The notes: generated from the sequence alone by a model not told the origin. A stretch of 64,000 nt of DNA from an uncultured Chloroflexia bacterium (GCA_963766685.1 CAVYBJ010000017.1:248107-312106), one strand, 5' to 3'. Positions 34,593 through 55,179 are shown, counted from the stretch's first letter. A program made the numbers and translations.

Positions 34593-35510
34593 CTAGCGTG
34601 CCGGGGCGGTCCCTGCTGCGAGCCTGGCGGCCACCGAGGCCGCCTCGTTGATGCGGTCGGGCAACACCACGATCCCGGCTTCCCGTGCCCCGTCCCAGCT
34701 GGCGCTGCGGCCGCCGACCGCGAAGATGGGGCTGTGGCCGGCGTTGCGGAGCGCGGCGGCCACCTCGAGGGCCTGGAGCTGCTCGGAATCCTGGACGACG
34801 GCCAGCACCACGACCCGTGCTCTCTGCTGCCTGATGACGTGCACCCAGCTGGCCACGGGGACATCCGCGCCCAGGTACAGCACGCCGACGCCCAGGCGCC
34901 GCAACGCCACCGCGAACGCCAGCGCACCGAGCTCGTGGCGACCCTCCGGTGGCAGGCCGACCACCACGCTGGCCTCCCCGACGACCGCGGCCGCCTCGTA
35001 GAGGGCTGACAGCCGGCGGTGGATGGCGGCGCTCGCAGCGTGCTCTGCTGCCACGTCCAGCTGGCCGTCGACCCAGGCCGAGCCGAGCGAGCCAAGGGCC
35101 GGCATGAGCAGGTCGTCGACGATGGATTCGAACGATCCCTGCGCGAACATCTCGTCGAGGATGGCACCGGTCGCCGCGATGTCCATGGCCGTGGCGGCGG
35201 CCAGGAACCGCCCGGTGAGGTCTGCCTGGCGGACGCGCGTGGACTCGTCGCCGAGGGGCGCGGTCGCCGGCTGGACGAGCGGCAGCACGCCGATCTCGCC
35301 GGCCAGGATGGCGCGACTGGCCTCGCTGGCACTCCAGCCGCTATCGGTCAGCTCACGAACGCGCATCAACGTGGCGATGGCCTGATCGTCGTAGAGCCGG
35401 TAGCCGGACGCGGTGCGCTTGGGACTGACCACGCCGTAGCGGCGTTCCCACGCTCGGATGAGCGGGACGCTGACGCCGGAGCGGATCGAGGCTTGCTTGA
35501 TGTTGTACAT
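34593..35510 (-). CDS. carH: CarH/LitR-type light-responsive regulator: MerR-family HTH plus B12-binding domain
   Basis: N-terminal MYNIKQASIRSGVSVPLIRAWERRYGV matches a MerR HTH. The C-terminal PPEGRHELGALAFAVALRRLGVGVLYLGADVP closely resembles the B12-binding His loop of Thermus CarH. Confidence 0.8.
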   Translation of the reverse strand: MYNIKQASIRSGVSVPLIRAWERRYGVVSPKRTASGYRLYDDQAIATLMRVRELTDSGWSASEASRAILAGEIGVLPLVQPATAPLGDESTRVRQADLTGRFLAAATAMDIAATGAILDEMFAQGSFESIVDDLLMPALGSLGSAWVDGQLDVAAEHAASAAIHRRLSALYEAAAVVGEASVVVGLPPEGRHELGALAFAVALRRLGVGVLYLGADVPVASWVHVIRQQRARVVVLAVVQDSEQLQALEVAAALRNAGHSPIFAVGGRSASWDGAREAGIVVLPDRINEAASVAARLAAGTAPAR

Positions 35511-35798
35511 GCTTTGTGGAGCATATCACGGCTCTGTGACAGCCACAACGGAGAATCTCGCAACAAACCCTTGACAAGCAGTGAACAGCTGGGCTATCGT
35601 TCCGCCATCAGGTCAACAGACCTTGGACACCAAGCGCAGAGCGAGGAGACAACCACATGACCGACCGGTGGTCCCGCTAGGGGCCCACGCCCGGGGGCGC
35701 AGAGCGCCTCGTCCGTCCCGCCGGTGGGCCTCGAGGCTCGCCTGACAGAGCAAGAGGCTCATCCCACTCATCAGGACTCGTGGAAAGGAACCAACCAG

Positions 35799-36566
35799 AT
35801 GCGAACCCAGAAGCTTTCCATCCTCGGCGCCGCCGTCGCGCTCGCAGCCGTCTCGGTCATCCCGGTCGGCGTTGCCGCCCAGGACGACGCAGCGGAGATG
35901 GCCAAGGTCCGCGTCGGGCACTTCAGCCCGGATGCGCCCGCGGTCGACGTCTACGCCAACGGTGGGGCCATCCTCACCGACGTTCCCTTCGGCGTGCTCT
36001 CGGAGTACCTCGAGGTCCCCGGCGGCACCTACACCATCGAAGTCGTGGCTGCAGGCGCTGATCCTGCTGACGGCGCCGTCATCGGCCCGGTCGATCTCGA
36101 CTTCGCGGCTGGCACCATGACCACCGTGGCCGCGACCAACGCCCTGGCCTCCATCGAGGCGCAGGTCCTGGTCGACGAGCCCAACCCGCAGGACGGCATC
36201 GCCCAGGTGCGCGTCGTCCACTACAGCGCTGACGCGCCGGCCGTGGACGTCGCCCTCGATGGCGGCGACGTGGTCGTCGAGAACCTTGCCTACCCTGCCG
36301 CCGCTGGCTACCTCGACCTGCCCGAGGGCGAGTACGACCTCGAGATCCGCCCGACCGGCACGACCGACGTCGCCTTCGACATCGATCCGCTGGCGCTGGC
36401 AGGTGGCAACAGCTTCACGGTCTTCGCCATCGGCTCCCTGGCTGACGGCTCCTTCACGGTCCTGCCCGCGGTCGATGCCAGCCTCATGGCTGACGACGAC
36501 ATGACGGCCGAGGAGTCCATGGCCGCCGAGGACGAGGCCATGGCCGAGGAGTCCCCCGAGGCCTAA
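35799..36566 (+). CDS. Secreted DUF4397 domain protein
   Basis: Signal peptide, then repeated VRVGHFSPDAPAVDVYANG / VRVVHYSADAPAVDVALDG motifs. A GGAAAGGAA ribosome-binding site precedes the ATG. Confidence 0.75.
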   Translation: MRTQKLSILGAAVALAAVSVIPVGVAAQDDAAEMAKVRVGHFSPDAPAVDVYANGGAILTDVPFGVLSEYLEVPGGTYTIEVVAAGADPADGAVIGPVDLDFAAGTMTTVAATNALASIEAQVLVDEPNPQDGIAQVRVVHYSADAPAVDVALDGGDVVVENLAYPAAAGYLDLPEGEYDLEIRPTGTTDVAFDIDPLALAGGNSFTVFAIGSLADGSFTVLPAVDASLMADDDMTAEESMAAEDEAMAEESPEA

Positions 36567-36664
36567 GCCCGACACCTTCCCCTGGGCCGGCAGTGTGCTT
36601 CCCCTTCGCACTGCCGGCCTACCCCACCCCGCTGACCCGAACGACCCGAAAGGAAGTCACCCAG

Positions 36665-37976
36665 ATGTCTCAACCAACCACCCGAGGGCGCAAGATGGCG
36701 CTCCTTGGCATGGCCGCCGCCCTCTCGGCCGCAGCGGTCGTCCCGACCGCCGCCGCTGCCCAGGACGAGATGGCCGCTGAGATGGCCAAGGTCCGCGTCC
36801 TCCACGGCGCCGGCGACGCCCCGGCCGTCGATGTCTACGCCGGCGGCAACCTGGTCGTCGAGGGCCTCGAGTACGCCAAGCATCACGGACTACCTCGAGG
36901 TCCCCGGTGGCGAGTACCAGATCCAGGTCGTGCCCAGCGGCGCCACCCTGGAGGAAGGCCCCGTCGTCATCGACGCACCCCTGACCTTCGACGCCGGCAC
37001 CATGACCACGGTCGCGGCGACCGGCAGCCTGGCCGCCGGCATCATCCCCCAGGTCCTGGCCGACGCCCCGGCGCCCACCGCTGATGGCTCGCAGGTCCGC
37101 GTCGTCCACTTCAGCTTCGACGCCCCGGCCGTGGACGTCGCTCCCGACGGCGGCGACGCGCTCATCACCGACCTGGCCTTCCCGAACAACACCGGCTACG
37201 TCGACCTGCCGGCCGGCGCCTACGACCTCGAGATCCGCGCCGCGGGCACGGACACCGTGGCCTTCGACATCCCCGAGGTCACGCTTCGACGCCGGGCACC
37301 AGCTACTCCGTGTTCGCCGTCGGCGGGCTGGAGGACGGCAGCTTCACGGTCGTGCCGGCCGTCGATGCGGCCCTGGCCGGCGTGCGTGTCGGTCACTTCT
37401 CGGCCGATGCCCCCAACGTCGACGTCTACGCCAATGGCAGCGCCATCCTGACCGACGTGCCCTTCGGCGCCATCTCCGACTATCTCTTCGTGCCGGCTGG
37501 CACGTACCAGATCCAGGTCGTGCCCGCGGGCGCATCCCTCGAGGAGGGCCCCGTGGTCATCGATGCCCCGCTCACCTTCGAGGGCGGCACGCTGACGACC
37601 GTGGCAGCCACCAATGAGCTCGCCAACATCACCCCGGTCGTCCTCAAGGACAAGCCGGCTCCGGTCGCCGATGAGGCCCAGATCCGCGTCGTGCACCTGA
37701 GCGCCGATGCGCCCAAGGTCGACGTGGCCGCTGACGGCAGCAGCGTCAAGGACGCCATCTTCAAGGGACCTCAAGTACGGCAAGGCCAAGGGCTACGCCA
37801 CCGTTCCCGCCGGCGAGTACGACCTTGAGGTCCGTCCCGCGGGCGAGAAGAAGGCCGCCTTCGACATCGACCCCCTGATGCTCGAGGCGGGCAAGTCCTA
37901 CAGCGCCATGGCCATCGGCCAGCTCGGCGGTGGCTCGTTCAACGTCATCCTCGTCGAGGATGCCGCGGTCAACTAG
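36665..37976 (+). CDS. Secreted DUF4397 domain protein with three or four DUF4397 repeats; 3-4 frame breaks
   Basis: Signal peptide and the same repeat motifs (VRVLHGAGDAPAVDVYAGG, VRVVHFSFDAPAVDVAPDG, VRVGHFSADAPNVDVYANG, IRVVHLSADAPKVDVAADG), spread across three reading frames. Confidence 0.6.
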
Positions 37977-38073
37977 ACCATCCGCGGAGACTCACGGGGA
38001 CCGGTGTCCATCGGTCCCCCCTCCGCTCCCTCACCCCTCTGACATCCGACACGAAGGAAGGAAGGAACCCCTG

Positions 38074-38640
38074 ATGTTCAAGAAGCTCATGGCCGGCGTC
38101 ATCCTGGCCGCCGTCTCCGTCACGGCCCTCGTCCCCGCCGCCGTCTCTGCCGCGCCTGGCACGACGATCGTGGACAAGGCGATCGCGGTGAACAGCCGAA
38201 CCGGTGACTACGACACGCTCCTGACCGCCGCGACCTGTGACTACCTGGGCGGTGCCGTCGTGGACGTGCTCTCCTCCCCCGACAAGACGCTCTTCGCCCC
38301 GACCGACGCAGCCTTCCGCCGCCTGGGCGATGCCCTCGGCCTCGGCAAGGCCGGCCTGAACCCCAGCAACGTCTGCAGCGTTGACAGCCTCCTTGGCGAC
38401 GGCGTCCTGCTCGACATCCTGGCCTACCACGTCATCGACGGCAAGGTGAATGCCAAGACGGCCGTCTCTGCCATCGGCTCGAAGGTCGAGATGCTCAACG
38501 GCGACAAGGCCGAGATCTCCGTGCGCGGCGGCAAGCTGCGCATCGACGACGCGGTCATCCTGGCGACGGACATCCGCGCCAGCAACCTGGGCATCATCCA
38601 CGTCATCCAGAAGGTCATGCTGCCGCCCTCCCTGGGCTGA
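38074..38640 (+). CDS. Secreted fasciclin (FAS1) domain protein
   Basis: Signal peptide, TLFAPTDAAFRRL and ILAYHVIDGKV FAS1 motifs. An AAGGAAGGAAGGAA ribosome-binding site precedes the ATG. Confidence 0.8.
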   Translation: MFKKLMAGVILAAVSVTALVPAAVSAAPGTTIVDKAIAVNSRTGDYDTLLTAATCDYLGGAVVDVLSSPDKTLFAPTDAAFRRLGDALGLGKAGLNPSNVCSVDSLLGDGVLLDILAYHVIDGKVNAKTAVSAIGSKVEMLNGDKAEISVRGGKLRIDDAVILATDIRASNLGIIHVIQKVMLPPSLG

Positions 38641-38776
38641 CAGCGACAGACAGCTTCTCCCTCTGCTGATCAGGCCGGTCCCCTCGGGGACCGGCCTGAT
38701 CGATTCGTGGGGCTCGGAGGTGGGCGGTCAGCCGCCGCGATCGACCCGGCACCCGACGGGGCCGTGACGGGGTCCG

Positions 38777-40141
38777 TCAGGCAGGGGCTGCCACGACGCT
38801 GCTCGGCGCCGTGGCCGTGGCCGTCGTCGGGCGAGGTGGGCGACGGCCGCCTCCCGACAGCGCCTCGTACGCGATCTCGGGGCCCGGCATCGCCCGGAGG
38901 CGGTCGGAGATGCGGCCGGGCGTCCTCGGTGTCGATCGCAGCAGGCCGCGGATGCTGCCGGCGATGAGCGGCCGGCTGGACCGATTGGGATCGAGGGCCA
39001 CACCGGCCAGGTGTCGTTCGATGGCGGCGGCGCCGTCGAACTGGTCGCTCGAGAAGGGCATGACCAGCAGGGGTACGCCATGGGTGAGGGCTTCGGTCAC
39101 GCTGTTGTTGCCGCCGTGCGTCACGAGCAGGGACGCGTGCTCCAGGAGTGCCACCTGGGGCAGGCTGGCACGCACGAGCCAGTCCGAGGGGAGCGGACCG
39201 ATGCCCTCGGGACGATTGGCGCCGATGGCCATGGCCACGCGGGCCTCGACCCGGCGCAGTGCTGCGGCGATCCGCGCCAGGACGTCGCTGCGAGCAGACA
39301 GGAAGGTGCCGAGCGACACGACCACCAGCGGTCGTCCATCGGCACCCGCCAGCCAGGCTGCCGTCTCGTCGTCGGGCGACTCGTGGCGCACGGCACTGCC
39401 CAGGAAGGCGTGGCGAGGCAGGAGTGCCGTTCGCGCCGCTTCGTGGAGCTCCTCGGGGTAGGCGTAGAGGACCATGTCGCCGTGGGCGGCGAAGGCATCG
39501 CCGACGGGTTCGCTCCCCGGCGCCAGCGATCGCAGGACGCCGTCGTAGGCATCGCCGAAGGCTTCGCTGACGCCGCGCGCGATGGCCCGCAGCGTCGCCA
39601 GCTGGACCGGATCGGCGGTGATGGCGGACGGCCAGTCGGATGGCACGCCGTAGACCTCCGCGCCGACCGGCAAGGCCGTGGGGTGTCCGACGACGACGTC
39701 CGCGAACGGCGCGCCCATGGCGCGCAGGCCGATGGTGGCCGCGAAGGCGAGGTGATCCACGAGGATGGCGTCGGGACGCACGCGCTCGACGACACGGATC
39801 GTCCGCCGGGCCACGAGCTGCGGCCGCCACAGGAGATCGACGGCGCGGGCCTCCGCCTGGAAGCGCAGGGTGTCGAGCATGCCTCGGCGCGTGGCCGTGA
39901 AGAAGGCCTCCAGCGAACGAGCCTCGGCGCGGGAGCCCTGTCCGGCCCCGGCGGTGCCCGCGTTGGACCCGCGGGACATGACGAGCTCGACGTGCTCGAA
40001 CCCGGCAGCTGCCACCAGCGGGGCGACGGCCGGCCCGGTGGCCACCACGACCCGCTCGCCTCTCCTGGCCCAGGCTCGCGCGATGGTGAGCAGCGGGGTG
40101 GCGTGCGAGACGTAGTCGGGGCTGATGACCAGCAGCGTCAC
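38777..40141 (-). CDS. GT1-family (UDP-glycosyltransferase, MGT-like) glycosyltransferase
   Basis: HGGNNSVTEALTHGVPLLVMPFSSDQF signature. GTG start at VTLLVISPDY. The track ORF is over-extended at its 5' end. Confidence 0.7.
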   Translation of the reverse strand: MTLLVISPDYVSHATPLLTIARAWARRGERVVVATGPAVAPLVAAAGFEHVELVMSRGSNAGTAGAGQGSRAEARSLEAFFTATRRGMLDTLRFQAEARAVDLLWRPQLVARRTIRVVERVRPDAILVDHLAFAATIGLRAMGAPFADVVVGHPTALPVGAEVYGVPSDWPSAITADPVQLATLRAIARGVSEAFGDAYDGVLRSLAPGSEPVGDAFAAHGDMVLYAYPEELHEAARTALLPRHAFLGSAVRHESPDDETAAWLAGADGRPLVVVSLGTFLSARSDVLARIAAALRRVEARVAMAIGANRPEGIGPLPSDWLVRASLPQVALLEHASLLVTHGGNNSVTEALTHGVPLLVMPFSSDQFDGAAAIERHLAGVALDPNRSSRPLIAGSIRGLLRSTPRTPGRISDRLRAMPGPEIAYEALSGGGRRPPRPTTATATAPSSVVAAPA

Positions 40142-42388
40142 GCCGCTCGGCCTTCCTCCACGGTCAGGGCCACCGTGCTGGCGCCGGCCGCGATGCGGTA
40201 GACGGCGGCCAGGGTGCGAGCCATCCGGCTGAGGGTGAAGCGGGCGTCCACCACCGACCTGGTGCGCTGACCTGTCGCCGCGTCCTTGGCGAGGCGCAGC
40301 ACCTCGTGGATGCCGGCCGCGATGGCACCGGGGTCGGACGTGTCCACGAGCGCGCCGGTGACGCCAGGCTCGACGTAGGTGGCAGGACCGCCGGTCAGCG
40401 GCGCCACGACGGGCAGCCCAGCCGCCATGGCCTCGAGGATCGCGAGACCGAACTCCTCCTTGAGGCTGCCACAGGCGTAGGCGCCGCCGGGCGCGACGAG
40501 GTCGCCCCAGCCATGCCTCGCGACGGCGAGGACCAGGCCAGCCTCGGCGTGGCGGCGGTGTCCGAGCAGGATCGACTCGGTCGCTGAGGCCCGCGTGCCG
40601 GCGCAAGAGCGCGCCGATGCGGGCCAGCTCGGCGGCCTCGCCGGCAGACGGGTCGTCGAGATCGCCTCCCACGAGGACGAGGTTCGCGGTCGCGCCCAGG
40701 GACGTGTCGAGGGCGAAGGCCTCGACGATGCGCGCCATGCCCTTGACCTCGTGCAGTCGGCCCGACGCTCACGACGATGGGCAGCCCGCGCCGCTGCCCG
40801 GGCAGTCGCTCGATGGCTCGCGCCAGGTCGTCCAGCACCTCCGCGCTCGCGCCGGCCGCCAGCGCGGACGCAGATCGCATCGGCCTGATGGGTATCCACG
40901 CCCTCGGCCACGACGGTGTGGCGCGGCGGACCGGCGGACAGGTCGATGCCCACGAGTTCGGCAAGCTGTCTCGCCAGGTCCGGTCGGGGCATGAGGGCCA
41001 GCTCACTGGGCCTCGCCGGCCAGCCGTTCCACGAGCCGGACGCGGTACCAGAGCGCCGCCTGGGCGTCCTGCGTCCCGAAGGTCCGCCGGTCGAGCGTGC
41101 CACGGCGCTCGGCGGCCGCGATCGGGCCGTGCGGGTCCGGGGCGAGCGTGAAGACGGTGGGGACACCAAGCTCGCGGGCCACGCGTGCTGCGGCCAGGCT
41201 GCCGGGGTCGGCCATGCGCAGGTGGAGGACGTCTGGCGTGCCTGATGCCAGCAGGGCGGCGCGGATGCCGCGCTCGGCTGCCACGAGCGAGGGCCAGGCA
41301 CTCGCGAAGCTGGCACCCTCGCCGTCTTCCAGGGGCACGTTCTCGAAGCGGTGGCCGCCCATCGCGGGCTGCTCGAGCAGGCGTTTGGCTGCCGGCACGC
41401 CGGGCAGTGCCCGGCCGATGCTGATGGTCTCGAGGATGCGCGGCTGCGAGGCCAGCGCTGCCCCCAGCCGCGGCAGCAGCGTGGCCACGCCTCCGGCATC
41501 GCCCATGCCGGCCCGGGTCGCCTCCGCGTCCAGGAAGGCGCCGAGATGGACCTGGGCGACCTTGAGGCCCTCGTCCCGTGTATGGCTGCGGCGCGGGCCG
41601 CGGTGTCGGAGCACCTGCAGGGCACGCGCCAGCCGCACGGCCTCGCCGATGCGGCCCCCCTGCGCGGCCAGGGACGCCACCGCGGGTGGCAGTCGTTCGC
41701 CGAGCCGATCGCCCAATGAAGCCACGGCCTCGACCCGCACCGCCGGCACCTCCGAGGCATCGGTGGCCAGGCGCTCAAGGAGCTGCCGAGCGGCAGGCCC
41801 GGGCACCAGGCCCGCGACCTCGGCCAGGTAGCGGCGCGAAGTCGCGACACCCGTGCGACGGAGCGCCGCGTCAAGGGCGACCACGACGGCTGACGCGATG
41901 TCCGCGTCAGCGCGTGCCCACCGCGCCAGGGCCTGCTGGGCGTGCATGCCGGCCAGGCCACCGCGCCCCACGGCGTCGGTGAGCGGCTCGATGAGTGCCA
42001 GCGACGCCGGCCGACCGCCCAGGGCCCAAGCGGCGTGGGCGTCCAAGCCGTTCACGGCCGTGCACAGCGACCCGGACAGCTCGCTCTCGACTCGGCGACC
42101 CGGGACCTGGCCAAGAGCATGGATGGCGGCCACCGCCGTGACCGTGTCTCGCTCGTCACGGATGGCCTCCAGGAGAGGCCCCAGCAGGAACGCCGGGTGG
42201 CTGCCTTCGCCGATGGCGGCGATGGCCGCCTCCTTGACCCGTGGGGCCAATCGGATGGCGGACAGGATGGTGGGTGCGCGCCGCACCGCATCGAGCGACG
42301 AGACCAGTGCCACTGGAGGTCTCGCCCACAGGGCTGGCCACGGGGGCGTGGCGGCGATGCGCGACGGGTCGTCGTGGACCGCGGACAC
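40138..42388 (-). CDS. Glycosyltransferase family 4 protein with an N-terminal HEAT/PBS-lyase repeat extension; 2-3 frame breaks
   Basis: The C-terminal EEFGLAILEAMAAGLPVV (E-x7-E) is the GT4 motif. The middle region (..ANLVLVGGDLDD..) and the N-terminal HEAT-like repeats lie in three different frames. Confidence 0.55.
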
Positions 42389-42448
42389 GTCAGCGTGCGG
42401 ACCTGCGCCAGTCGACCACCGCCTGGCGTCTGGCTGCCGAGGCGCACG

Positions 42449-43889
42449 TCAGGCGGCATGCCGCAGACTCCCCGCGCGTCCGTCGATGGTGGTGGTCGAG
42501 GCGTGCCGCGGGCCAAGGTAGGTGGCCAGGCCGGCCTCCAGCGGCGTGAGCGTGCGAGGCATGGCTCGAAGCAGGGGTTCGACATCCACGGTCGCCGGCT
42601 GGTTGACGAAGTCCACCCCGTCCGGGCTGAGGGGCGGGTCGGGCAGGAAGCGCATCGGCCAGGCGGCCAGCTTGATGAGGGGCGCCGGCCCAGGGATGAC
42701 GGGCTTGTGGATGCCTGCCACGCTCATGGCTCGGCCGATGACCTCTCGCATGGACATGGTCTCTGGACCGCCGACCTCGAAGACCTGCTCGAGGGCAGCC
42801 TCCTGCTCCAGCGAATCGGCCGCCAGGCGAGCCACGTCCCCGACGTAGACCGGGGCCAGCTGCTGGCGACCCAGGTTCGTGAGCGGGACGAAGGGCAGGG
42901 TCCGCGCGAACCCCAGGAAGCGATTGAGCGAGACGTCGCCAGGGCCGTAGACCCAGGTCGGTCGCAGGATGGTCCAGGCCATCCCGGAGCCGCGCACGGC
43001 GTCCTCCGCGACCGCCTTGGCGCGGAACCAGTGGCGCTGGGCGTCATGACCAGCACCCGCACCCGAGAGGTAGACGACACGGCGCACGCCGGCCTGCCGG
43101 CCGGCCGCGACGAGCTGCTGCCGTGCCGCCGGCATCGACTTCCATGAAGGTGTAGCCCTTCCTGGGCTGCTCGATGGGCAGGCCCGGGAACGCCAGCGAG
43201 ATGACCATCTCATCCACGCCCTCGAGTGCGGCGCGCAGGGCGGCCGGGTTCCGGATGTCGGCAGGTCGCAGCTCGATGTCGTCCGGCAGCTGTCCGCGGG
43301 CGGCCTCGCCCCTCGAGGAGAGGACGACGACGTGGCGTCCGCGACGGCGGAGCTCACGGGCGATCTCGCTGCCCACGAAGCCTGTCCCACCCGCGACGGC
43401 GATGGTGCCTGGGCGCCCACTCGCCGGGTCGCCGGCCGGCTCGAAGATCTGGTCGATGGCGGTGGCGCGAAAGGCGAAGATGTGCTCGAGCTGCGAACGC
43501 ACGACGAGGCGATGGCCGAGCTCGCCGACCGGACCGAACGGCAGTTCGTACTCGACGTGATCGTCCATGCGGACTCCGTCCGTCACGGGCGTGAAGCGAT
43601 GATCGTGGACCCAGGACTTGTATGGGCCCTTGGCCTGCACGTCACGGAAGCGCAGGGGAGCCTCGACCGCGTCGATGTGCGTCTGCCAGTGGGCGGGGAT
43701 GCCGAAGAGCGGTCGCACCGTGTAGTCGATGACGGCCCCGGTCTCCGTCACCGGGTCGGGCGTGTGGATGTCGAAGCCCATCGAGCGGGGGGTGATGCGT
43801 CCGAGGTTACGGGCCCGGGAGAAGAAATCCCAGACTCGGTCCAGGTCTGCCTTCACGATATGACTGCTGTCGAGCGTGTGCTTGGTCAT
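42449..43889 (-). CDS. SRPBCC (cyclase/dehydrase) domain fused to an NAD(P)-binding NmrA/epimerase-like domain; one frame break near 43110
   Basis: N-terminal SRPBCC fold, then a Rossmann segment IAVAGGTGFVGSEIARELRRRGRHVVVLSSR, then a C-terminal NmrA-like part in the second frame. Confidence 0.6.
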
Positions 43890-43906
43890 CGAACCGTTCC
43901 ATATGT

Positions 43907-43939
43907 GTATAGGGTTTGTATAGACTGAGGATAGGGCAG
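43907..43939 (+). promoter_or_regulatory. Three 11-bp direct repeats (TGTATAGGGTT / TGTATAGACTG / AGGATAGGGCA), a candidate CarH operator upstream of the photolyase gene
   Basis: GTATAG, GTATAG and GGATAG are spaced exactly 11 bp apart, about 90-120 bp upstream of the phr start. The 10-mer GTACAATGTT follows at 43963-43972. Confidence 0.5.
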
Positions 43940-44028
43940 CCGCGAGCGAGTGTCAACCATCTGTACAATGTTCTGGCGGTCGCAGGGGTCGCCGATCGCC
44001 AGGACAGGGCAACGGCCGGAGGTACAGG

Positions 44029-45462
44029 TTGGAGGAGTCGATCGACACCGCCATCGTCTGGTTTCGGCGCGACCTGCGGGTCACCGACCATCCGGCTCTC
44101 AGCACGGCGGCGGCCAGTGCACGATGGGTCATCCCGCTCTTCGTGCTCGACGAGCGGCTCATGACCGGATCGATGGCCGCGCCGGCACGTACGTGGTTCC
44201 TGCTGCGATCGCTGGCGGAGCTCGATGCCTCGCTGCGTGCGCGCGGCAGCGGCCTGCTCGTGCGGAGCGGACGCCCGGAGGATGTCGTGCCGAGGCTGGC
44301 TCACGAGACCGGTGCCTCCACCGTCCTGGCGACCCGAGACGTCACCCCCTTCAGCCACCGACGCGACCAGGCCGTTTCAGCGGCGCTCGAGCGCGACGGC
44401 CGTCGCCTCCGGCTGCAGCCCGGCCTGCTGCTGGCCGAGCCAGAGGCCATGCACACCGCCGCGGGCCGCCCATACAGCGTCTTCACGCCCTTCTGGAAGG
44501 CGCTCCAGCAGGCCTCCCGCCGACGACTGCTCCCAGCCGTCGGGGCCATCCGTACCCCAGCCGATCTCCTGGCTGGATCGCTGGGGGTCACTGCCGCGCT
44601 GGCTGATCGCGAGGCACCGCATCTCGGGTTGCCGGAGCCGGGTGAACCGGCCGCGCAGCAACGCCTCATGGCCTGGGTGCTCGAAGGGCTCCCCGGCTAC
44701 GGTCGCGGCCGGGACGGACTCGATGGCCAGGCCACCTCGCGCCTGGGGCCCGACCTCCACCTCGGCACGCTGTCGCCGCTGCAGGTGGAGCGTGCCGCCC
44801 TGGAGGTGGGGGAGGCGGGCCAGCCGTTCGTGCGGCAGGTCGCCTGGCGCGAGTTCTACCACCACCTGCTCTTCCATCGACGCGCGGCCGTCGACCCCGT
44901 GGCCGACAGCCCCTTCATGGCCATCTTCCGTTCCGAGCGGGAAGACCCCGATGCGGTCGCCGCGTGGCGCGAAGGACGCACGGGCATCCCGGCCGTGGAC
45001 GCCGGGATGCGCCAGCTGGCCACGACCTCGTGGCTGGGCAACCGGGCACGCCTGGTGGTGGCCTCCTTCCTGACCCGTCACCTGCTCATGGACTACCGCA
45101 TCGGCGAGCGTCACTTCATGCGGCACCTCATCGATGGCGATGTCGCGAACAACGCGGGTGGCTGGCAGTGGACCGCGGGCGTGGGCGCGGACCCGCAGCC
45201 CTGGTTCCGTGTCTTCAACCCGGTCCTGCAAGGGCAGCGCTTCGATCCCGACGGTGACTGGGTGCGCCGCTGGGTGCCCGAGCTTGGCCAGGTCCCGGCA
45301 CGTCACGTCCACGCGCCGTGGGAGATGCCCGACCATGCCGCGGCTGCCGTGGGCGTCCGCCTCGGTGAGACCTATCCGAGGCCCATCGTGGACCTGCACG
45401 CGGGTCGCGAGCGCGCCCTGGCAGCCTTCCGCTCGATCTCAGGCGCCCCGGATCGCCCCTGA
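44029..45462 (+). CDS. phr: Deoxyribodipyrimidine photolyase / cryptochrome family protein
   Basis: IVWFRRDLRVTDHPAL N-terminus and a C-terminal FAD-binding domain (..WREFYHH.., ..GWQWTAGVGAD..). Confidence 0.9.
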   Translation: MEESIDTAIVWFRRDLRVTDHPALSTAAASARWVIPLFVLDERLMTGSMAAPARTWFLLRSLAELDASLRARGSGLLVRSGRPEDVVPRLAHETGASTVLATRDVTPFSHRRDQAVSAALERDGRRLRLQPGLLLAEPEAMHTAAGRPYSVFTPFWKALQQASRRRLLPAVGAIRTPADLLAGSLGVTAALADREAPHLGLPEPGEPAAQQRLMAWVLEGLPGYGRGRDGLDGQATSRLGPDLHLGTLSPLQVERAALEVGEAGQPFVRQVAWREFYHHLLFHRRAAVDPVADSPFMAIFRSEREDPDAVAAWREGRTGIPAVDAGMRQLATTSWLGNRARLVVASFLTRHLLMDYRIGERHFMRHLIDGDVANNAGGWQWTAGVGADPQPWFRVFNPVLQGQRFDPDGDWVRRWVPELGQVPARHVHAPWEMPDHAAAAVGVRLGETYPRPIVDLHAGRERALAAFRSISGAPDRP

Positions 45463-45479
45463 CCACATGGCCGGGCCGT

Positions 45480-46982
45480 TCATCCGGAGGTCTCTTGCTC
45501 AGCCTTTGCCCGCTCCGCCCGTCTCACGAGCTCGCGGATGGAACCTCGGAAGATGAGCAGGTGGGCCGGTAGCAGCGCGTACCAGTAGAGCAGCCCGCTG
45601 AGGCCGCGGGGTTCGAAGAAGGCCGTCTGCACGAGCAGGCTGCTGTGTTCGTCACCACTGACCTCGTACTGCAGCCATGCCCGGCCGGGCAACGTCATCT
45701 CCGCCCTGAGGCGCAGCAATTCCGGTCGGCGCACGGACTCGACGCGCCAGAAGTCCACGGCGTCACCGACGCGCACGCGGTCCGGGTCGCGCCGACCAAG
45801 GCGCATCCCTGGTCCACCGACCGCTCGATCCATGAGGCCGCGGATCCTCCACAAGGGGTTGGCATACGGCCAGCCGGCCGCACCTCCCAGCCGCTCGACC
45901 TCGGCGAAGGTGACGGCAGCTCCGGCGCGAACGGAGCGACGATGGCGGTCCACGATCATGCCCTCTCGAGAGCGCTCGGCGGCCAGGTCCGTACGACCGT
46001 GAACACCCAGCGAGTCGAACCAGGTGGTCTCGACGTCGTGGCCCTCGACGCGCTCGATGGCCCTGCGCACGGCCAGCTCGAATGGGGTCGCGGCGACGCC
46101 GAAGGCCGCTGACGGGACTGGGTCACGAACCACCACCTCGTGACGCAGGCCTTCGATGAGTGGTCGGGCGATCGAACTCGGGACGGGGGTCACGAGGCTG
46201 CACCAGTAGGAGCTCAGGCGGGGTGTCAGGACGGGCACCGGGATCATGAGTCGCCTCATGCCCCGCAGGCGCGCGTAGGTCTGCATCATCTCGGCGTAGG
46301 AGAGGACGTCCGGCCCGCCGATCTCCACGACACCCGCGCGCTCGGGATGGCCGGCCGCGGCGGTCAGGTAGTCGAGCACGTCGCGGATGGCGATGGGCTG
46401 GCAGAGCGTGCGCACCCAGCGTGGCGTGATCATGACCGGCAGGTGCTCGACAAGGCTGCGCAGCAGCTCGAAGGAGGCGCTCCCGGAGCCGATGACGATG
46501 GCGGCCCGGAACTCCGTCACGGGGACGCCGTGCGCGGCCAGCTCCGCCCCCACCTGCTGGCGGCTGGCGAGATGCGCGGAGAGCTTGCTGTCAGGGTCTC
46601 CGAGTCCGCCGAGATAGACGATGTGGCCGAGGCCGGCGTCCCTGGCTGCCCGCGCGAACGAGCGCGCCGCGAGCAGGTCGCGCCGCTCGAAGCCGGCTTC
46701 GCCGCCGGCCATCGAGTGTGCCAGGTAGTAGGCCAGCTCGACCCCCTCCAGGGCAGCCGGCAGGGTCGTCGGGTCCAGCAGATCCAGGCGCACGACTTCC
46801 GCCGTGGGGAAGCGATCCGCCAACCCACGCGTGTCCCGGCTGGCCAGCCGCACCTGGTGGCCCCGCTCCACCAGTCGTGCGGCCAGGCGGCCGCCGACGT
46901 ACCCGCTGGCACCGACCACCAGGATGCGCATCGGCGCTGCCGCAGGGATGGCTCCCCGATCGAGCGTCGATGCCTCGCTCAT
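45480..46982 (-). CDS. NAD(P)-dependent SDR-type oxidoreductase with a C-terminal DUF2867 domain
   Basis: MRILVVGASGYVGGRLAARLVERGH Rossmann motif. The C-terminal 160 aa match the DUF2867 pattern. Confidence 0.75.
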   Translation of the reverse strand: MSEASTLDRGAIPAAAPMRILVVGASGYVGGRLAARLVERGHQVRLASRDTRGLADRFPTAEVVRLDLLDPTTLPAALEGVELAYYLAHSMAGGEAGFERRDLLAARSFARAARDAGLGHIVYLGGLGDPDSKLSAHLASRQQVGAELAAHGVPVTEFRAAIVIGSGSASFELLRSLVEHLPVMITPRWVRTLCQPIAIRDVLDYLTAAAGHPERAGVVEIGGPDVLSYAEMMQTYARLRGMRRLMIPVPVLTPRLSSYWCSLVTPVPSSIARPLIEGLRHEVVVRDPVPSAAFGVAATPFELAVRRAIERVEGHDVETTWFDSLGVHGRTDLAAERSREGMIVDRHRRSVRAGAAVTFAEVERLGGAAGWPYANPLWRIRGLMDRAVGGPGMRLGRRDPDRVRVGDAVDFWRVESVRRPELLRLRAEMTLPGRAWLQYEVSGDEHSSLLVQTAFFEPRGLSGLLYWYALLPAHLLIFRGSIRELVRRAERAKAEQETSG

Positions 46983-46998
46983 GGCCGGCTCCTTCGGC

Positions 46999-48180
46999 TC
47001 ACGCCAGGCCGCGGCGCTTCTGGAAGGAGATCTGGAGGTCCTGGGTCATGCCGGTGCGGAAGCCCGCCTCGCTGATGGACAGGTAGTAGTCCCACATGCG
47101 GATGAAGCGGTCGTCGAAGCCCATGGCGCGCACCTCGCCGAGGTGTGCGAAGAAGCTCGTCCGCCACGTCTGCAGGGTGCGCGCGTAGCTGTCGCGGATG
47201 TCCTGCACGTCCGGTCACCAGCAGCTGCGTCCCCTCCAGCGAGGCCTCGATGGCCGCCAGGGAGGGCAGCACGCCGCCCGGGAAGATGTAGCGCTGGATC
47301 CAGTTGGCGCCCCGCAACTGGGCCTCGTACGCGTCATGCGGGAAGGTGATGACCTGCACGCTCATGCTGCCGCCGGTCTTCAGCGCCTTCCCGCAGGCGC
47401 TGAAGAAGTCGCGGTAGTACTCGGCCCCGACCGCCTCCAGCATCTCGATGGAGACGATGGCGTCGTAGGTGCCCTGCACGTCGCGGTAGTCGCGAAGCTG
47501 GATATCCACCTGGTCGCTGAGCCCGGCTGCCGCGATGCGCGCGCTGGCCAGCTCGTGCTGTGCCTGGCTGATGGTCAGGCTGGTCACTCGGCAGCCCAGC
47601 TCGCCGGCGGCATACAGCGCGAAGCCGCCCCAGCCGGTGCCGATCTCGAGCACGTGCTGCCCGCGCTCGAGGCCGGCCAGCTCGGCCATGCGGCGGTACT
47701 TGTTGCGCTGGGCGTCAGCCAGCGATTGCTCGCTCGATTCGAAGACGGCGCTCGAATAGGTCATCGTCTCGTCGAGCCAGAGCCGGTAGAAGTCGTTGCC
47801 CAGGTCATAGTGGGCCGTGATGTTGCGCCGTGCCCCAGCGCTTCGTGTTGCGGTTGCGCCGGTGGGCGATCGTCCGGCCGACCTGGGCCGGAAGGCGCCA
47901 CCAGCCCTTGGACAGGGCCAGGTCGGTCCGATTGGCCACCGCCAGGGAGATGAGCCCCACGAGGTCCGGACTCGACCAGAGGCCATCCATGTAGGCTTCA
48001 CCACCGCCGACCTCGCCGCCCAGGAGGAGCCGTCGGAGCGCATCCAGGTCGTGGATGTGCATCTCGCCGCGCAGCTCGGAGTCGCGGTCACCGAAGACTC
48101 GTCTCGAGCCATCAGGCAACCGTACCGTCAGGCAGCCGCGGCGGATGCGCGAGGCGGCGGCCAGGCCGATGCGCCCGGCA
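46999..48180 (-). CDS. cfa: Cyclopropane-fatty-acyl-phospholipid synthase family methyltransferase; 2 frame breaks near 47215 and 47815. The boundary with the upstream DUF1365 gene is approximate
   Basis: GEAYMDGLW, HYDLGNDFYRLWLD, VLEIGTGWGGFALYAA (SAM motif), and C-terminal ..ARTLQTWRTSF..RMWDYYLSISEAGF. Confidence 0.7.
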
Positions 48181-48980
48181 ACGGTCGTGAGCAGGGGGTC
48201 GAGTGGCCCGGCCAGGCGGTCCAGGCGCATCAGGTCGGTCAACGCGTCAACTCCGAGTGGCGGTGGAAACGGATGCCTCGGCGCCACAGTCGCCAGGCGT
48301 GCAGGTGGATGGCCGTGATCGTCTTGTGGGTCGCGAAGGGGATGCGAAGCAGGCACCGGGCCAGCGTGCGGTCGGTCAGACGCGCTCGCTGCAGCAACGA
48401 GGCTGGCGGTGAGCACGGGCTGTCCGTGCTCGGTCTCGGACATGGCGATGCGCAGGAGCCCGGGGTCGTCCTGGACGCGCACCGTGTAGCGAGCGTCCAT
48501 GTCGATGAACGGCGAGACGTAGAAGTCCTTGTCCATCTCGTCCACCCAGCCCGAGCCGCGCCGTTCCGGGCGCAGCGTGTAGAGACGTCGCTCGCCGTGC
48601 GTGTTGTGCACTTCGATGATGAAGGCGCGCAGGACACCCTCTCCGTCGCGACAGAGGTAGAAGCTCGCCGGGTTGAACTGGTACCCGAAGATGCGCGGCG
48701 TGGCGATGAAGGTGATGCGCCAGCCCTGGGGGTCGAAGCCTTCATCCCCGAGGTGCTGTCGGACCGAGACAGCCAGGTCAGCGGCAGCTGGGAGCCAGTG
48801 ATCCCGATCGCGGAAGGTGAGCACGTTGAGGCGGTTGCGGCTCAGGAGGCGCAACCTGCCGACCACGGCATCGATCTCGGACAGATCGAGCGCCAGGTAG
48901 AAGACGTCGTGCTCCAGCTCATACTCGATGGGTCGCAGACGCCGGTGCCGGACCTTGCCGTGCAGCAGGTGCGAGCGCAT
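48180..48980 (-). CDS. DUF1365 family protein
   Basis: MRSHLLHGKVRHRRLRPIEYELEHDVFYLALDLSEID N-terminus typical of DUF1365. I found no stop before the cfa N-terminal region in this frame. Confidence 0.6.
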
Positions 48981-49033
48981 GGCAGGCGACCGAGCCTGCC
49001 CACGACCCCTCGGCGCTCCGGGCTGGCTGGTCG

Positions 49034-50368
49034 TCATGGCGTTCGTGCTCCGACGACAGGGATCGCGCCGACCGGCGTGGCCTCGACCTCAGCGGCGCTC
49101 ACGGTCCTCTCCAGGATGCCCGCCGCGATCCGCTCGGCAGCCTCGAAGCCGGAGCGGCAGCCGTCCTCGTGGAAGCCATAACCGAGGTGCGCCCCGGCAT
49201 AGAGGGTGCGCCGGTGTCCCTGCAGTCGGCCCAGCGCGGTCTGGCCATCCAGCGTCCGGAAGGTGTACTTGGGGTGGCTCATGGCCCGCGTCACGATGAC
49301 CGTGGCGGGGTCCACGAGGTCGCCCGGGTTGACCGAGGTGCAATACGCGGTCTCGCCGGGCAGGTGCTGGAGGCGGTTCATGAAGTAGGTCATGGTGAGC
49401 TGTCGTCCAGGCCTGCGGCAGTCCACGGTGTCCACGTTCCAGGACTCCCGCGCCCCCTCGCGACGCGGCAGCATCGACTCGTCGGTGTGGAGGACCACGT
49501 CGTTCGTGGTGTACTCGAAAAGGCCGAGGGCGTCGCGCTCCTCGTCATCGGCATCGACCAGGAGGGCCAGGGTGACGTCAGCGTGGGTGGCCATGATGAC
49601 GCCGTCGAAGCGCCCGCTGGCACCGCTGGCGGTGACCACGGTCACGCCGTCGGGGGCGCGCAGGACCCTGACCACCGGGTCGCCAGCGCGGATGGAACCC
49701 TCGGGCAGTCGATCCTGGATGCGCTCCACGTAGGTCTTCGAGCCGCCCTTGATGGTGCGCCAGGGATGCCCCTTGCCGAACCCGATGAGACCGTGGTTGT
49801 CCAGGAAGCGCAGCAGGTAGTCGACGGGGAAGTCCATGATCTCCGCCGCGGAGGTCGACCAGACCGCCGAGACGACCGGAACCAGGAAGTGACTGCGGAA
49901 GGCGATGCCGTAGCCCCCCTCGTCAAGGAAGGCGCCCAGGGTCTCTCGCGTCCAGAGGTCCGCGTCGAGGCGCGCCCGCGCCACCCTGTAGAAGCGGCGG
50001 ATGTCGGCGATCATGCGCCAGTGGGAGGCGTGCAGCAGGCTGGACGGCTGCGCGAACATGCCACGCACTCCGAGCGAGCTGAACTCCAGGCCGCAGGCGC
50101 GACAGGTATGCCCCAGCGACATCTCCGTGGGCTGGGTCTCAACGCCCAGCTCGGCGAGCAGCCTGGTGAAGCGCGGATAGGTGGGCTCGTTGTAGACGAT
50201 GAAGCCGGTGTCCACGGCGAGGGGGCCGTCCGGCGTGGCCACGGCCACGGTCTTGACGTGTCCGCCTGGCTCCGGCTCGGCCTCGTAGAGCGCCACGCGG
50301 TGTTCCTCACGGAGGGCGTAGGCTGCCGACAGACCGCTGATGCCCGACCCGATGACCGCGATATCCAT
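49034..50368 (-). CDS. FAD-dependent oxidoreductase (amine-oxidase-like)
   Basis: [19 protein letters not shown] dinucleotide-binding motif. Conserved partner of DUF1365 and cfa. Confidence 0.8.
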
Positions 50369-50423
50369 GATGCTCGACTCTCCCCCGAGTGTGATGCACG
50401 CATTGACGCGTCGCCGTGTCCAA

Positions 50424-50454
50424 GGATAGTACAATGTTTGTAGAACGTCTATCC
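50424..50454 (+). promoter_or_regulatory. Inverted repeat GGATAG-N19-CTATCC enclosing GTACAATGTT in the divergent FAD-oxidoreductase/SRPBCC promoter
   Basis: Seen directly. It shares the 10-mer GTACAATGTT and GGATAG/GTATAG elements with the phr upstream region. Confidence 0.4.
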
Positions 50455-50475
50455 CGTACCGATCGGAGGATCTCG

Positions 50476-51006
50476 ATGACCACGCTGGTCGAGCATGTCA
50501 CGACCCCCCTGCCACGTGAAGCGGCCTTCGCCTACGTGGCCGATTTCTCCCGCCAGGCCGAGTGGGATCCCAACACCGTCTCGTCGAAGCGCATCGACGA
50601 TGGCGACCTCGGTGTCGGCGCCCGCTTCGCCCTGAACGTGAAGATGGGTACCCGGACCACACCGATGGAGTACCGCATCACCGAGTATCAGGCACCTTCC
50701 AGGGTCGTGCTGATCGGCGAGGGCTCGGGTGTCTGGAGCCAGGACATCATCACCTTCAGCGATGACCCGGAGGGCACCCGGGTCGACTACGTGGCCGAGA
50801 TCAAGCTCTCCGGGCTGCTGGGTGTCATCCAGCCGCTCCTTGGCCGTGCCTTCGCCGGCATCGCCAAGGGCGCCGTGACCGGCATGAAGCGAGAGCTGGA
50901 CGCCCTGGCGGCGCGCGGGGATGGCGTCAGAGCCAAGGATGCCGCCGGCACGGGCGCCGCCGGCACGGGCGCCGCCGGCACGGGCGCCGCCGCTGGCCAG
51001 GACTGA
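50476..51006 (+). CDS. SRPBCC family protein
   Basis: Polyketide cyclase/START-like fold. GGAGGA ribosome-binding site. The C-terminal tail has a 3 x 15-bp repeat encoding AGTGA. Confidence 0.7.
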
Positions 51007-51012
51007 CCGCTC

Positions 51013-52012
51013 ATGGACCTGCGCCAGCTCGCGGACGACGCGCTCGAGATCACGGTCGTGGGCAGCTTCAGCCGCCTCGGCTACCAGGCGCGGCGGCGCC
51101 TCTACGAGTGGCACGACCCGCTGCCCGGTACGCTGGCCGGCCGGACGGCACTGGTGACCGGGCCGACCTCCGGCCTGGGCCGCGCCACGGTCGACGCCCT
51201 GGCGTCGCTCGGCGCCCGCGTCGATCCTGGTCGGTCGCAGTCGCGAACGACTGTCGGCCACGGCCGCCGAACTGGCGCAACGGCATGGTGACGCGGAGCG
51301 CTTCCCGGTCGTGGTGGCTGACATGTCCTCCCTCGCCGGCGTGCGCGAGGCCGTGGCTGCGATCGAGGCCTCAGAGTCGCGCCTGGACATCCTCGTCGAC
51401 AGCGCCGGAGCCATCCACGCCACACGCACGGTCACCGAGGAAGGCCTGGAGGCCACCTTCGCCACGATGGTCGTGGGACCGTTCGTGCTCATCTCCGGGT
51501 TGCTGCCGATGCTGGAGCGGAGCGGCGACGGGCGTGTCATCACGGTCGTCTCTGGTGGCATGTACGGCCAGGCGCTGCCGCTGGACGACCTCGGGTTCGA
51601 GCGGGGCGATTTCAACGGTACGCTCGCCTATGCCCGGGCGAAGCGGGCGGCCACCGCCCTGACCCGCGAGTGGGGGCGACGCCTGCGCGGTCGCCCAGTG
51701 CGGGTCAACGCCATGCACCCGGGCTGGGCGGACACGCCCGGCCTGGCCGCATCGCTGCCTGGATTCCACGGCCTCATGGGTCCGCTCCTGAGGACGCCTG
51801 CCCAGGGCATCGACACGGTCACCTGGCTGGCCGCGGATCCGCGGGCCGGCCTCGCTGGCGGCCGGCTCTACCTTGACCGACGGTCGCGTCCCTTCGACCG
51901 GCTGCCCTCCACTCGCCTCTCGTCAGCACAGCGACGCTGGCTCTGGGATGAGGTCGTCCGGCTGGCCGGCATCCCCGACCCGATGCCCGACCTCAGCGGT
52001 CGGCGCGACTGA
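51013..52012 (+). CDS. Short-chain dehydrogenase/reductase; one frame break near 51230
   Basis: TALVTGPTSGLGRA Rossmann motif, YARAKRA catalytic motif, and PGWADTPGL in the second frame. Confidence 0.7.
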
Positions 52013-55101: not shown

Positions 55102-55179
55102 GCCCCCATCGTCTAGAGGCCCAGGACGCCACCCTTTCAAGGTGGAGATCGACCGGTTCGAATCCGGTTGGGGGTACCA
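55102..55179 (+). tRNA. tRNA-Glu (anticodon TTC)
   Basis: Cloverleaf: acceptor stem GCCCCCA/TGGGGGT with G1-U72, D arm TCTAGAGGCCCAGGAC, anticodon stem-loop CCACC-CTTTCAA-GGTGG, T arm GGTTCGAATCC, and an encoded CCA. Confidence 0.8.

Follow-up and report, generated by a model that had tools for sequence, protein, structure and literature searches.

The CarH proteins of Thermus, Bacillus megaterium and myxobacteria bind tandem 11-bp direct repeats of the form 5'-nnnnTnnACAn-3'; the arrays have three or four repeats, some of which may be imperfect pseudo-repeats, and in many cases the TTGACA -35 box serves as a repeat (PMC9304148). The motifs that define B12-dependent CarH are RxWERRY, Wx9EH and D/ExHx2G/P-x41-SxT/V-x22-27-GG, among which Wx9EH tells CarH from the B12-independent CarA (PMC9304148). 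According to PMC9758184, what class I proteins control is mainly carotenogenesis. Class II LitR are presented in the same paper as lacking a functional Rossmann B12 domain, as B12-independent and under the control of a short LOV protein, with sites of the form TGTACA-N12-TGTACA and a regulon made of phrB, a short-chain dehydrogenase (SDR), an FAD oxidoreductase, the cyclopropane fatty acid (CFA) synthase-like ufaM and hypothetical genes. We analysed a 64-kb stretch of DNA from an uncultured Chloroflexia bacterium (GC about 70%; hereafter the window) that carries a carH gene, a photolyase gene (phr) and a lipid operon with a CFA-synthase-like gene (the cfa cluster). An earlier note on this same 64-kb stretch had proposed a compact light regulon in which CarH acts through 11-bp operators on phr and on the cfa-cluster promoter. 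Our analysis makes a CarH-type light regulon the probable reading of the locus, with three promoter regions as its targets.

The carH gene (34593-35510, minus strand) encodes a protein of 305 aa with a MerR-type winged helix-turn-helix, a four-helix bundle and a Rossmann B12-binding domain. Pfam recognises in it MerR_1 (E=2e-14), B12-binding_2 and B12-binding, and the protein aligns end to end with the CarH of Thermus thermophilus (5C8D/3WHP; E about 2e-31, 36% identity over 260 residues). Within this alignment RHELGALAF pairs with RHEIGAMLA of the Thermus protein, and the description of carH as a MerR and B12-binding protein with a Thermus-like His loop is thereby borne out. The motifs were compared in nine sequences, i.e. 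the window protein, six orthologues and two Chromatiaceae homologues, and the residues of RxWERRY, Wx9EH, the axial-His loop and the GG are invariant throughout. The recognition helix reads RAWERRY (residues 19-25), with R19, A20, W21, E22, R23 and R24 invariant. The second motif, W146-x9-E156-H157 (residues 146-157), is invariant in nine of nine sequences; its counterpart in Thermus CarH is W131/E141/H142. The Rossmann motif keeps exactly the published spacing: His192-x2-Gly195, x41, A237-V-V239, x26 and GG266-267. The NCBIfam equivalog NF052513 (TransRegCarH) is the best match of the protein (E=1.4e-40), with an alignment that spans profile positions 7-266 of 274. No second carH-like gene was found in the window by tblastn. 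Judged by its domains and motifs, the carH product is a class I (adenosylcobalamin-type) CarH/LitR protein, and it very likely binds B12.

Eleven phased units of the TnnACA type occur in the window, and all are found in one of three regions between divergent promoters; the fit to TnnACA is exact in ten. Between carH and a DUF4397 gene they lie on the plus strand (TTGACA 35571, TGAACA 35582, TCAACA 35613 and TGGACA 35624). On the minus strand they are found between phr and an SRPBCC-SDR fusion gene (TATACA 43906-11, TATACA 43917-22, TTGACA 43951-56 and TGTACA 43962-67) and at the cfa-cluster promoter (TGGACA 50417-22, TGTACT 50428-33 and TCTACA 50439-44). The pattern TnnACA-N5-TnnACA is present five times in 64 kb, every time in the carH or the phr intergenic region, and TGTACA three times. 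A position weight matrix (PWM) was trained solely on the phr and cfa sites of relatives, the carH region being excluded from training; the threshold for a single unit was at least 12 bits and the nulls came from a Markov model. The PWM matches in the window are 8 single, 6 double and 5 triple, all in the three intergenic regions, for nulls of 1.07, 0 and 0 respectively. The region between carH and the DUF4397 gene is thus found too, in spite of its absence from the training set.

For comparison we used 16 syntenic loci obtained from a photolyase scan with one genome per species (L001-L013, without L014, and L020, L022 and L026). Their photolyases are 65-88% identical to that of the window, and the metagenome-assembled genomes (MAGs) are labelled uncultured Chloroflexia, Chloroflexota or Candidatus Limnocylindrales. 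Save at the ends of contigs or of fetched flanks they share one gene order, carH ... SRPBCC-SDR<>phr, NmrA-DUF2867<CMAS<DUF1365<FADox<>SRPBCC, where CMAS stands for the CFA-synthase-like methyltransferase and FADox for the FAD oxidoreductase. The window accordingly belongs to a high-GC member of the Chloroflexota, probably one of the Limnocylindrales group. Fifteen of the loci span about 21 kb each, and L012 is an 11-kb contig. One MAG of the set, L002 (CAVQQK010000007.1), is titled “uncultured beta proteobacterium”; its photolyase is 87% identical to that of the window, its synteny with the Chloroflexota loci is full, and it is probably mislabelled or mis-binned.

Tandem matches in the 16 relatives occur only at the homologous regions: at all three in 15 loci, and at the phr site alone in L012, because this contig ends before the other two regions. 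Over 133 orthologous units, the window being left out, the successive positions of TnnACA are conserved at 99 (T), 62 (n), 63 (n), 100 (A), 100 (C) and 87% (A). Drift is confined to the two nn positions of the published CarH consensus, and T and ACA are fixed. This directional retention of T..ACA favours recognition of CarH-type half-sites over that of a symmetric palindrome.

The comparison was extended to 64 non-syntenic photolyase loci, of which only four, all from Chromatiaceae (L054, L065, L072 and L078), have strong tandem sites. The array reads cGTAACAAGTT TGTACAATATT TGTATAATTAT GGTATAACAT and lies about 200 bp from a carH homologue that is directly upstream of phr. It is made of four tandem 11-bp units, GTAACAAGTT TGTACAATATT TGTATAATTAT GGTATAACAT, 5' of the carH homologue (L054 8800-8845, L072 8780-8825, L078 8780-8825 and L065 700-750). 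The aligned carH homologues of L054 and L065 have Wx9EH and the axial His; those of L072 and L078 match over the N-terminal 72 residues only. With a carH homologue directly upstream of phr, these four MAGs hold a separate carH-phr module in Gammaproteobacteria. Isolated PWM matches without carH were seen in L032, L056 and L079, two of these in 45%-GC DNA.

The phr gene (44029-45462, plus strand) has a TTG start behind a GGAGG ribosome-binding site and encodes a class I cyclobutane pyrimidine dimer photolyase (Pfam DNA_photolyase and FAD_binding_7; NCBIfam photolyase models). It is divergent from a gene encoding a fusion of SRPBCC and NAD(P)-binding (SDR/NmrA-like) domains (42449-43889, minus strand; Pfam on ORFs, or open reading frames, 43044-43889 and 42449-43420), whose orthologues stand at the same position in 15 relatives. 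Domain annotation here and below is from Pfam on about 20 long ORFs between 32.4 and 52 kb. The earlier note had treated the upstream region as that of phr only; the candidate operator there is shared with the divergent SRPBCC-SDR gene, which that reader had not seen.

The predicted core promoter of the SRPBCC-SDR gene (43928-43956, minus strand; 10/12 in the promoter scan) is TTGACA (43956-43951)-N17-TATCCT (43933-43928). Its invariant columns are the six -35 bases and, in the -10 box, the T, the A and the last T. Site A (43906-43927, minus strand; PWM 26.1 bits), a direct repeat of TATACA, lies between this -10 box and the start codon, and in relatives it is mostly TGTACA-N5-TGTACA (TGTACAnnGTT-TGTACA). 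Site B (43951-43972, minus strand; PWM 25.9 bits) is composed of TTGACA, which is also the -35 box, and of TGTACA, 11 bp apart. In relatives site B reads TGTCAAnnnnn-TGTACAATGTT, which includes the 10-mer GTACAATGTT singled out by the earlier reader. The sequence TACAAT inside site B (43964-69, plus strand) is likely the -10 box of phr; a conserved -35 box was sought for phr and for the SRPBCC2 gene, and none was found.

Upstream of phr three direct repeats with an exact 11-bp spacing had been described (GTATAG 43907-12 and 43918-23, GGATAG 43929-34). All three are in place, and the spaced GKATAG pair is found twice in 64 kb for 0.12 expected from dinucleotide shuffles. As CarH units, the two GTATAG stand, being TATACA on the minus strand, but the third repeat does not. 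GGATAG reads TATCCT on the oriented strand, off the consensus; the positions conserved in it are the ones expected of a -10 box (TAnnnT), and it probably serves the divergent SRPBCC-SDR promoter as such. The 10-mer GTACAATGTT does recur, at 43963-72 and 50429-38; with at most one mismatch it is present twice in 64 kb, for 0.10 expected from dinucleotide shuffles. The repeats and the 10-mer are nevertheless not two motifs, as had been supposed: GTATAG and GTACAATGTT are the same TnnACA unit on opposite strands.

The lipid operon (45480-50368, minus strand) is composed of genes for an FAD/amine-oxidase-type oxidoreductase (UfaD-like, 49034-50368), a DUF1365 protein (UfaO-like, about 48300-49037), the CFA-synthase-like methyltransferase (46979 to about 48375, in two frames split near 47830) and an NmrA/DUF2867 protein (45480-46982). 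Divergent from it are the genes of an SRPBCC protein (50476-51006, plus strand) and of a short-chain dehydrogenase (51013-52012, plus strand, with a frame break near 51300). Pfam and NCBIfam agree with the gene content given before for phr, for this operon and for the SRPBCC and SDR pair, and the FADox-DUF1365-CMAS-NmrA operon is syntenic in 15 relatives. Its operator (50417-50449, minus strand) has three tandem 11-bp units, TCTACA, TGTACT and TGGACA, and is the best triple PWM match of the window (43.1 bits; null 0). The central unit contains both candidate -10 boxes, TACAAT (plus strand, 50430-35) and TACTAT (minus strand, 50431-26). Outside the window's clade the operator reads in most relatives TGTACAnGGAT-GGTACAATGTT-TGTACA, and in 11 more distant ones (L004-L026) it is mostly TGTACA-N5-GGTACA-N5-TGTACA; the clade itself (L001-L003 and L013) has variant outer units, like the window. 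Two other readings of this promoter were set aside. TTGACG-N16-GATAGT at 50403 is not conserved as a promoter. The inverted repeat proposed earlier, GGATAG (50424-29), a 19-bp gap and CTATCC (50449-54), is present but was rejected as the operator, being kept only in L001 among 15 relatives; the three tandem units at 50417-50449 are conserved instead.

To the phr and cfa operators, both of which the earlier note had found, must be added a third operator region, between carH and the DUF4397 and fasciclin genes, that it had missed. The predicted DUF4397 promoter is TTGACA-N18-TATCGT (35571-35600, plus strand, -10 box at 35595-35600; 10/12 in the promoter scan). Pair I (35571-35587, plus strand) consists of TTGACA, which is also the -35 box, and of TGAACA, 11 bp apart, and is a double PWM match of 21.8 bits. 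Alignment of the carH upstream region, which covered 8 relatives, indicates that TnnACA is kept in pair I in all save L020, whose second unit is TAGACG, and that nn varies. Pair II (35613-35629, plus strand), TCAACA and TGGACA 11 bp apart, lies 3' of the -10 box and starts 42 bp downstream of pair I. Its units in relatives (TAGACA, TATACA, TGAACA, TTAACA etc.) retain T and ACA and vary freely at nn, with the sole exception of L007, where the first unit is TAGACG. Wherever the fetched locus of a relative took in the region upstream of carH, sites were found at the carH promoter, and L011 and L022, which are cut at the locus end, nonetheless show a site near carH.

At the start of carH itself, within 35504-35525, TGTACA (35504-09, overlapping the start codon) and TGTGGA (35515-20) reach 14.7 and 13.3 bits respectively, next to a putative carH -10 box, TATGCT (35525-35520, minus strand). 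This stretch is invariant in the 8 aligned relatives. It is possible that carH is autoregulated via the site at its own start, but TGTACA at the ATG is dictated by the Met-Tyr-Axx codons and is therefore weak evidence for autoregulation. The carH gene appears to start 9 nt after the TAnnnT box, and its mRNA is probably leaderless.

On the other side of this region lies a putative CarH-controlled operon (35799-38640, plus strand). By Pfam its genes are those of secreted DUF4397 proteins (35799-36566 and about 36705-37451) and, at 37930-38640, of a protein with a fasciclin domain. The DUF4397 protein has a signal-peptide-like N-terminus, as read from the sequence, and strand and spacing suggest that these genes form one operon.

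The compact light regulon proposed at the outset is supported in its core by the identity of the motif with the published CarH consensus, by its footprinting in 15 relatives and by its co-occurrence with carH; it is the parsing of the motif that had to be changed. The architecture and motifs of the protein, together with sites that are exclusive to three regions, are conserved and overlap sigma70-like promoter elements, are the starting point of a mechanism modelled on the CarH of Thermus, Bacillus and myxobacteria. From this analogy we infer B12 binding, the oligomeric state, repression rather than activation, the light response and the nature of the lipid product. In the dark, oligomers of CarH bound to adenosylcobalamin would occupy the arrays of 11-bp direct repeats (nnnnTnnACAn), which overlap -35, -10 and start regions in three pairs of divergent promoters, and would occlude RNA polymerase. 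The first pair to be repressed would comprise the DUF4397/fasciclin operon and possibly carH, the second the SRPBCC-SDR gene and phr, the third the lipid operon with its UfaD-like, UfaO-like and CFA-synthase-like genes and the SRPBCC and SDR pair. In the light, photolysis of the Co-C bond would make the oligomer fall apart and derepress the six units. The cell would thereby be able to photorepair its DNA and would probably acquire singlet-oxygen-scavenging fatty acids of the furan or methylated type. A photolyase, which repairs UV damage, would fit functionally in a light regulon.

Several points weigh against this reading. Several of the target genes are interrupted by frame breaks, near 43120 in the SRPBCC-SDR gene, near 47830 in the CFA synthase gene and near 51300 in the SDR gene. 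Judged by domain continuity, the N-terminal part of the CFA synthase is in the frame of ORF 47805-49037 and its catalytic part in ORF 46979-48112, and the SDR is split between ORFs 51013-51291 and 51311-52012. Relatives have frame changes in the same genes, which suggests long-read indel errors rather than pseudogenes; the breaks are probably such errors, but they could be real. Two of the regions have 2+2 units separated by 31-34 bp, unlike the contiguous arrays of three or four repeats that have been characterised. The motif is also found elsewhere: a scan of metagenome contigs for perfect TGTACA-N5-TGTACA-N5-TGTACA gave 120 loci, which are 11-bp satellites and iteron-like inverted arrays, mostly unrelated. 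Among these 120 loci none encodes a homologue of carH, phr, FADox, DUF1365, CMAS, SRPBCC, DUF4397 or fasciclin. Since such triple arrays are unrelated to the locus, the bare motif is not diagnostic and is informative only in context. The remaining points concern the protein and the identity of the binder, and they are taken up with the alternatives on which they bear.

Some metagenome contigs share one repeat element (L120 3865-3951, L123 3987-4073, L132 3816-3902, L160 3191-3277 and about 8 similar loci). It is built of four 11-bp direct repeats (TGTACAGTATA-like), a short GC palindrome GCTTCAGAAGC and the same four repeats in inverted orientation, within a longer flanking inverted repeat. 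It looks like iterons or the arm sites of a recombinase, unrelated to carH.

The B12 site of the regulator deviates from the published motif. Position -2 of His192 is Gly, Glu being found at -3, and the motif Ser is replaced by Ala (A237), both clade-wide. The Pfam B12-binding score, 32.4 bits, barely passes the cut-off of 32.1, and NF052513 gives 139.3 bits for a cut-off of 400; this model is narrow, so that the latter score reflects distance from the seed sequences and not family membership. The loss of the acidic and Ser residues of D/ExHx2G...SxT/V throughout the clade, with the marginal Pfam score, could mean that the protein is B12-independent or altered in its cofactor, as a functionally CarA-like protein that still recognises the repeats and depends for its light response on some further factor, for example an anti-repressor or a different chromophore. 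We consider this unlikely: Wx9EH, the marker that separates CarH from CarA (PMC9304148), is intact and invariant, and the Rossmann motif retains its axial His, its Gly and GG, and spacings of exactly x41 and x26.

Only 64 kb of the genome are in view, and the true binder could therefore be another LitR-family paralogue outside the window. The TnnACA arrays would then serve this other regulator, for instance a B12-independent LitR paralogue or an unrelated helix-turn-helix dimer reading the palindromic TGTACA, and their linkage to carH would be coincidental or partial. Class II LitR, according to PMC9758184, bind TGTACA-containing sites and control the same kinds of genes; moreover TGTACA is self-complementary, hence tandem units also make inverted repeats. 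However the spacing is the 11 bp of CarH repeats and not the N12 (18 bp) of class II sites, and the degenerate units keep T..ACA directionally, without a symmetric pattern. The sites are found at the carH promoter in relatives and beside carH homologues in another phylum, and tblastn detects no paralogue in the window. A different regulator is, on this evidence, quite improbable.

It is also conceivable that CarH does bind these sites, but as a light-dependent activator or in a dual mode, by remodelling promoters in the manner of MerR. Proteins of the MerR family often activate, and a positive role is reportedly proposed for the LitR of Streptomyces at litS. The promoter spacers of 17-18 bp speak against MerR-type activation, which needs 19-20 bp, and units placed over the -35, -10 and start regions have the usual geometry of repression by occlusion. 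The class I CarH that have been characterised biochemically are, as far as PMC9304148 and PMC9758184 describe them, all dark repressors. Activation by CarH thus appears very unlikely. Lastly, the view that the repeats are sigma70 promoter elements (TTGACA, TACAAT) with chance AT-rich hexamers and no dedicated regulator is strongly disfavoured, to the point of being hardly credible. In its favour, -35 boxes account for two of the eleven units, and a good -10 box is contained in the 10-mer. Against it, all eleven phased units are confined to three regions, conservation is just as high in the units 3' of the -10 box and in the leader, and nn drifts while T and ACA are fixed in 15 genomes.

Within the CarH light regulon, which remains our preferred reading, a more far-reaching interpretation of the split layout deserves mention, although it is doubtful. 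The 2+2 arrangement, in which the core promoter is flanked on either side by a pair of repeats with a start-to-start distance of 42-46 bp, is kept in about 15 genomes. It would be a CarH binding mode new to description: a single tetramer, or two dimers acting together, might hold the promoter from both flanks and silence two divergent genes at once. The B12 site of this clade, without the usual acidic and Ser residues, may have an altered cofactor chemistry. A class I CarH would then be, in Chloroflexota, the direct master switch of photolyase, furan fatty acids and secreted DUF4397/fasciclin proteins, rather than of carotenoid genes.

Other features of the window were recorded. The DUF4397 leader of about 190 nt (35607-35798) contains a small upstream ORF (35657-35680, plus strand) of 7 codons, MTDRWSR*. 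In the relatives where it is in full view its length is fixed, Arg-Trp at codons 4-5 is invariant and it has a GAGGAG ribosome-binding site; in L001 the stop is partly read. Codons 4-5 show one synonymous change, CGG to AGG, and the stop is TAG, TAA or TGA. Downstream come an invariant GGGCCCAC and then a small hairpin, GGGCG-N5-CGCC. An Rfam search of the whole window found neither a cobalamin riboswitch nor a known RNA in the DUF4397 leader, and RNAalifold of this leader gave small invariant hairpins without covariation. The conserved upstream ORF may encode a regulatory leader peptide. A minus-strand ORF of 332 aa (“unk332”, 35613-36611) was rejected as a gene, being the shadow of the plus-strand DUF4397 gene without a Pfam match; it is a typical antisense artefact of high-GC DNA, yet it gives tblastn identities of 40-75% in relatives. 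Between the fasciclin and SRPBCC-SDR genes, and on the strand of the latter, a run of glycosyltransferase-type ORFs (38777-42388, minus strand) includes UDPGT/EryCIII-like, GT1/GT4 and HEAT-repeat types. An FMN riboswitch (18747-18895, minus strand; 74.9 bits) and a tRNA gene (55102-55176, plus strand) are ordinary.

The closest known systems are the CarH of Thermus (5C8D/5C8E/3WHP) and the CarH/LitR of B. megaterium. The protein resembles them in its domain order, in its alignment over the full length and in RxWERRY, Wx9EH and the axial His loop. The operators do so as well, as tandem 11-bp nnnnTnnACAn repeats of which one is the TTGACA -35 box, and so does the location of the regulator gene at a divergent promoter. 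The visible targets differ, being here photolyase, a lipid operon and SRPBCC/SDR and DUF4397/fasciclin genes; no carotenoid gene was identified in the ORFs that the scan covered between 32.4 and 52 kb. In two operators the units are split 2+2 around a core promoter, for three or four contiguous repeats in those species, the B12 motif has other residues in place of the acidic one and the Ser, and the host belongs to the Chloroflexota. Going by PMC9758184, the locus is also akin to class II LitR of Pseudomonas (P. putida PplR1-3 and P. mendocina PmlR1/2), which are MerR/LitR repressors with TGTACA-type sites overlapping the -35 box and the leader. It differs from these in having a B12-binding domain with an axial His, and in a unit spacing of 11 bp and not 18 bp.

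On the side of the effectors, the ufaD-ufaO-RSP1089-1087 operon of Rhodobacter sphaeroides is induced through sigmaE-ChrR, and UfaD and UfaO act with UfaM to make furan fatty acids that scavenge singlet oxygen (PMC7380195). Gene order and gene sizes are alike in RSP1091, RSP1090 (250 aa) and RSP1089 (402 aa) and in FADox, DUF1365 and CMAS, a comparison that extends to sizes and domains only (PMC7380195). The Rhodobacter set, an FAD desaturase, a protein of about 250 aa and a CFA-synthase-like protein of about 400 aa followed by dehydrogenase-type genes, serves photo-oxidative protection, and the window appears to have the same set in the same order. The sigmaE-ChrR regulon of Rhodobacter also includes phrA and cfaS. 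No separate ufaM-type methylase was identified in the lipid operon of the window. Control differs, an extracytoplasmic function (ECF) sigma and anti-sigma pair answering singlet oxygen there and a candidate photoreceptor-repressor here; Pfam detected no sigma or anti-sigma domain in the approximately 20 long ORFs examined from 32.4 to 52 kb. In mycobacteria, MPT70/83 have the fasciclin fold, and Rv0449c-Rv0446c contains FAD-oxidoreductase and ufaA1 genes. The SigK-RskA regulon of these bacteria holds mpt70/mpt83 and the Rv0449c operon, of which the Rv0449c promoter has been described (PMC7509140). The co-regulation of secreted fasciclin-domain proteins with an operon headed by Rv0449c recalls the DUF4397/fasciclin genes of the window, but control is there by an ECF sigma factor, and CarH and TnnACA repeats are lacking.

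Light regulons that unite photolyase with furan or cyclopropane fatty acid genes are thus already known, for class II LitR and for sigmaE-ChrR, and the understanding of how such systems work is unchanged by this locus. What is new lies in the host phylum, in the split 2+2 layout and in what appears to be a direct connection between a B12 photoreceptor and the genes for photolyase and lipid modification. Comparative genomics alone delimits here a compact putative regulon of three operator regions and six transcription units, and extends the CarH paradigm to uncultured soil and freshwater Chloroflexota. The natural operator variants, contiguous with three units or split 2+2, could serve CarH-based optogenetic tools. 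Compared with the characterised systems, a class I CarH appears in this case to govern directly a photolyase and an operon of the furan/cyclopropane fatty acid type, not carotenoid genes, and a B12 photoreceptor would thereby be linked to effectors that are otherwise under the control of class II/III LitR, sigmaE-ChrR or SigK.

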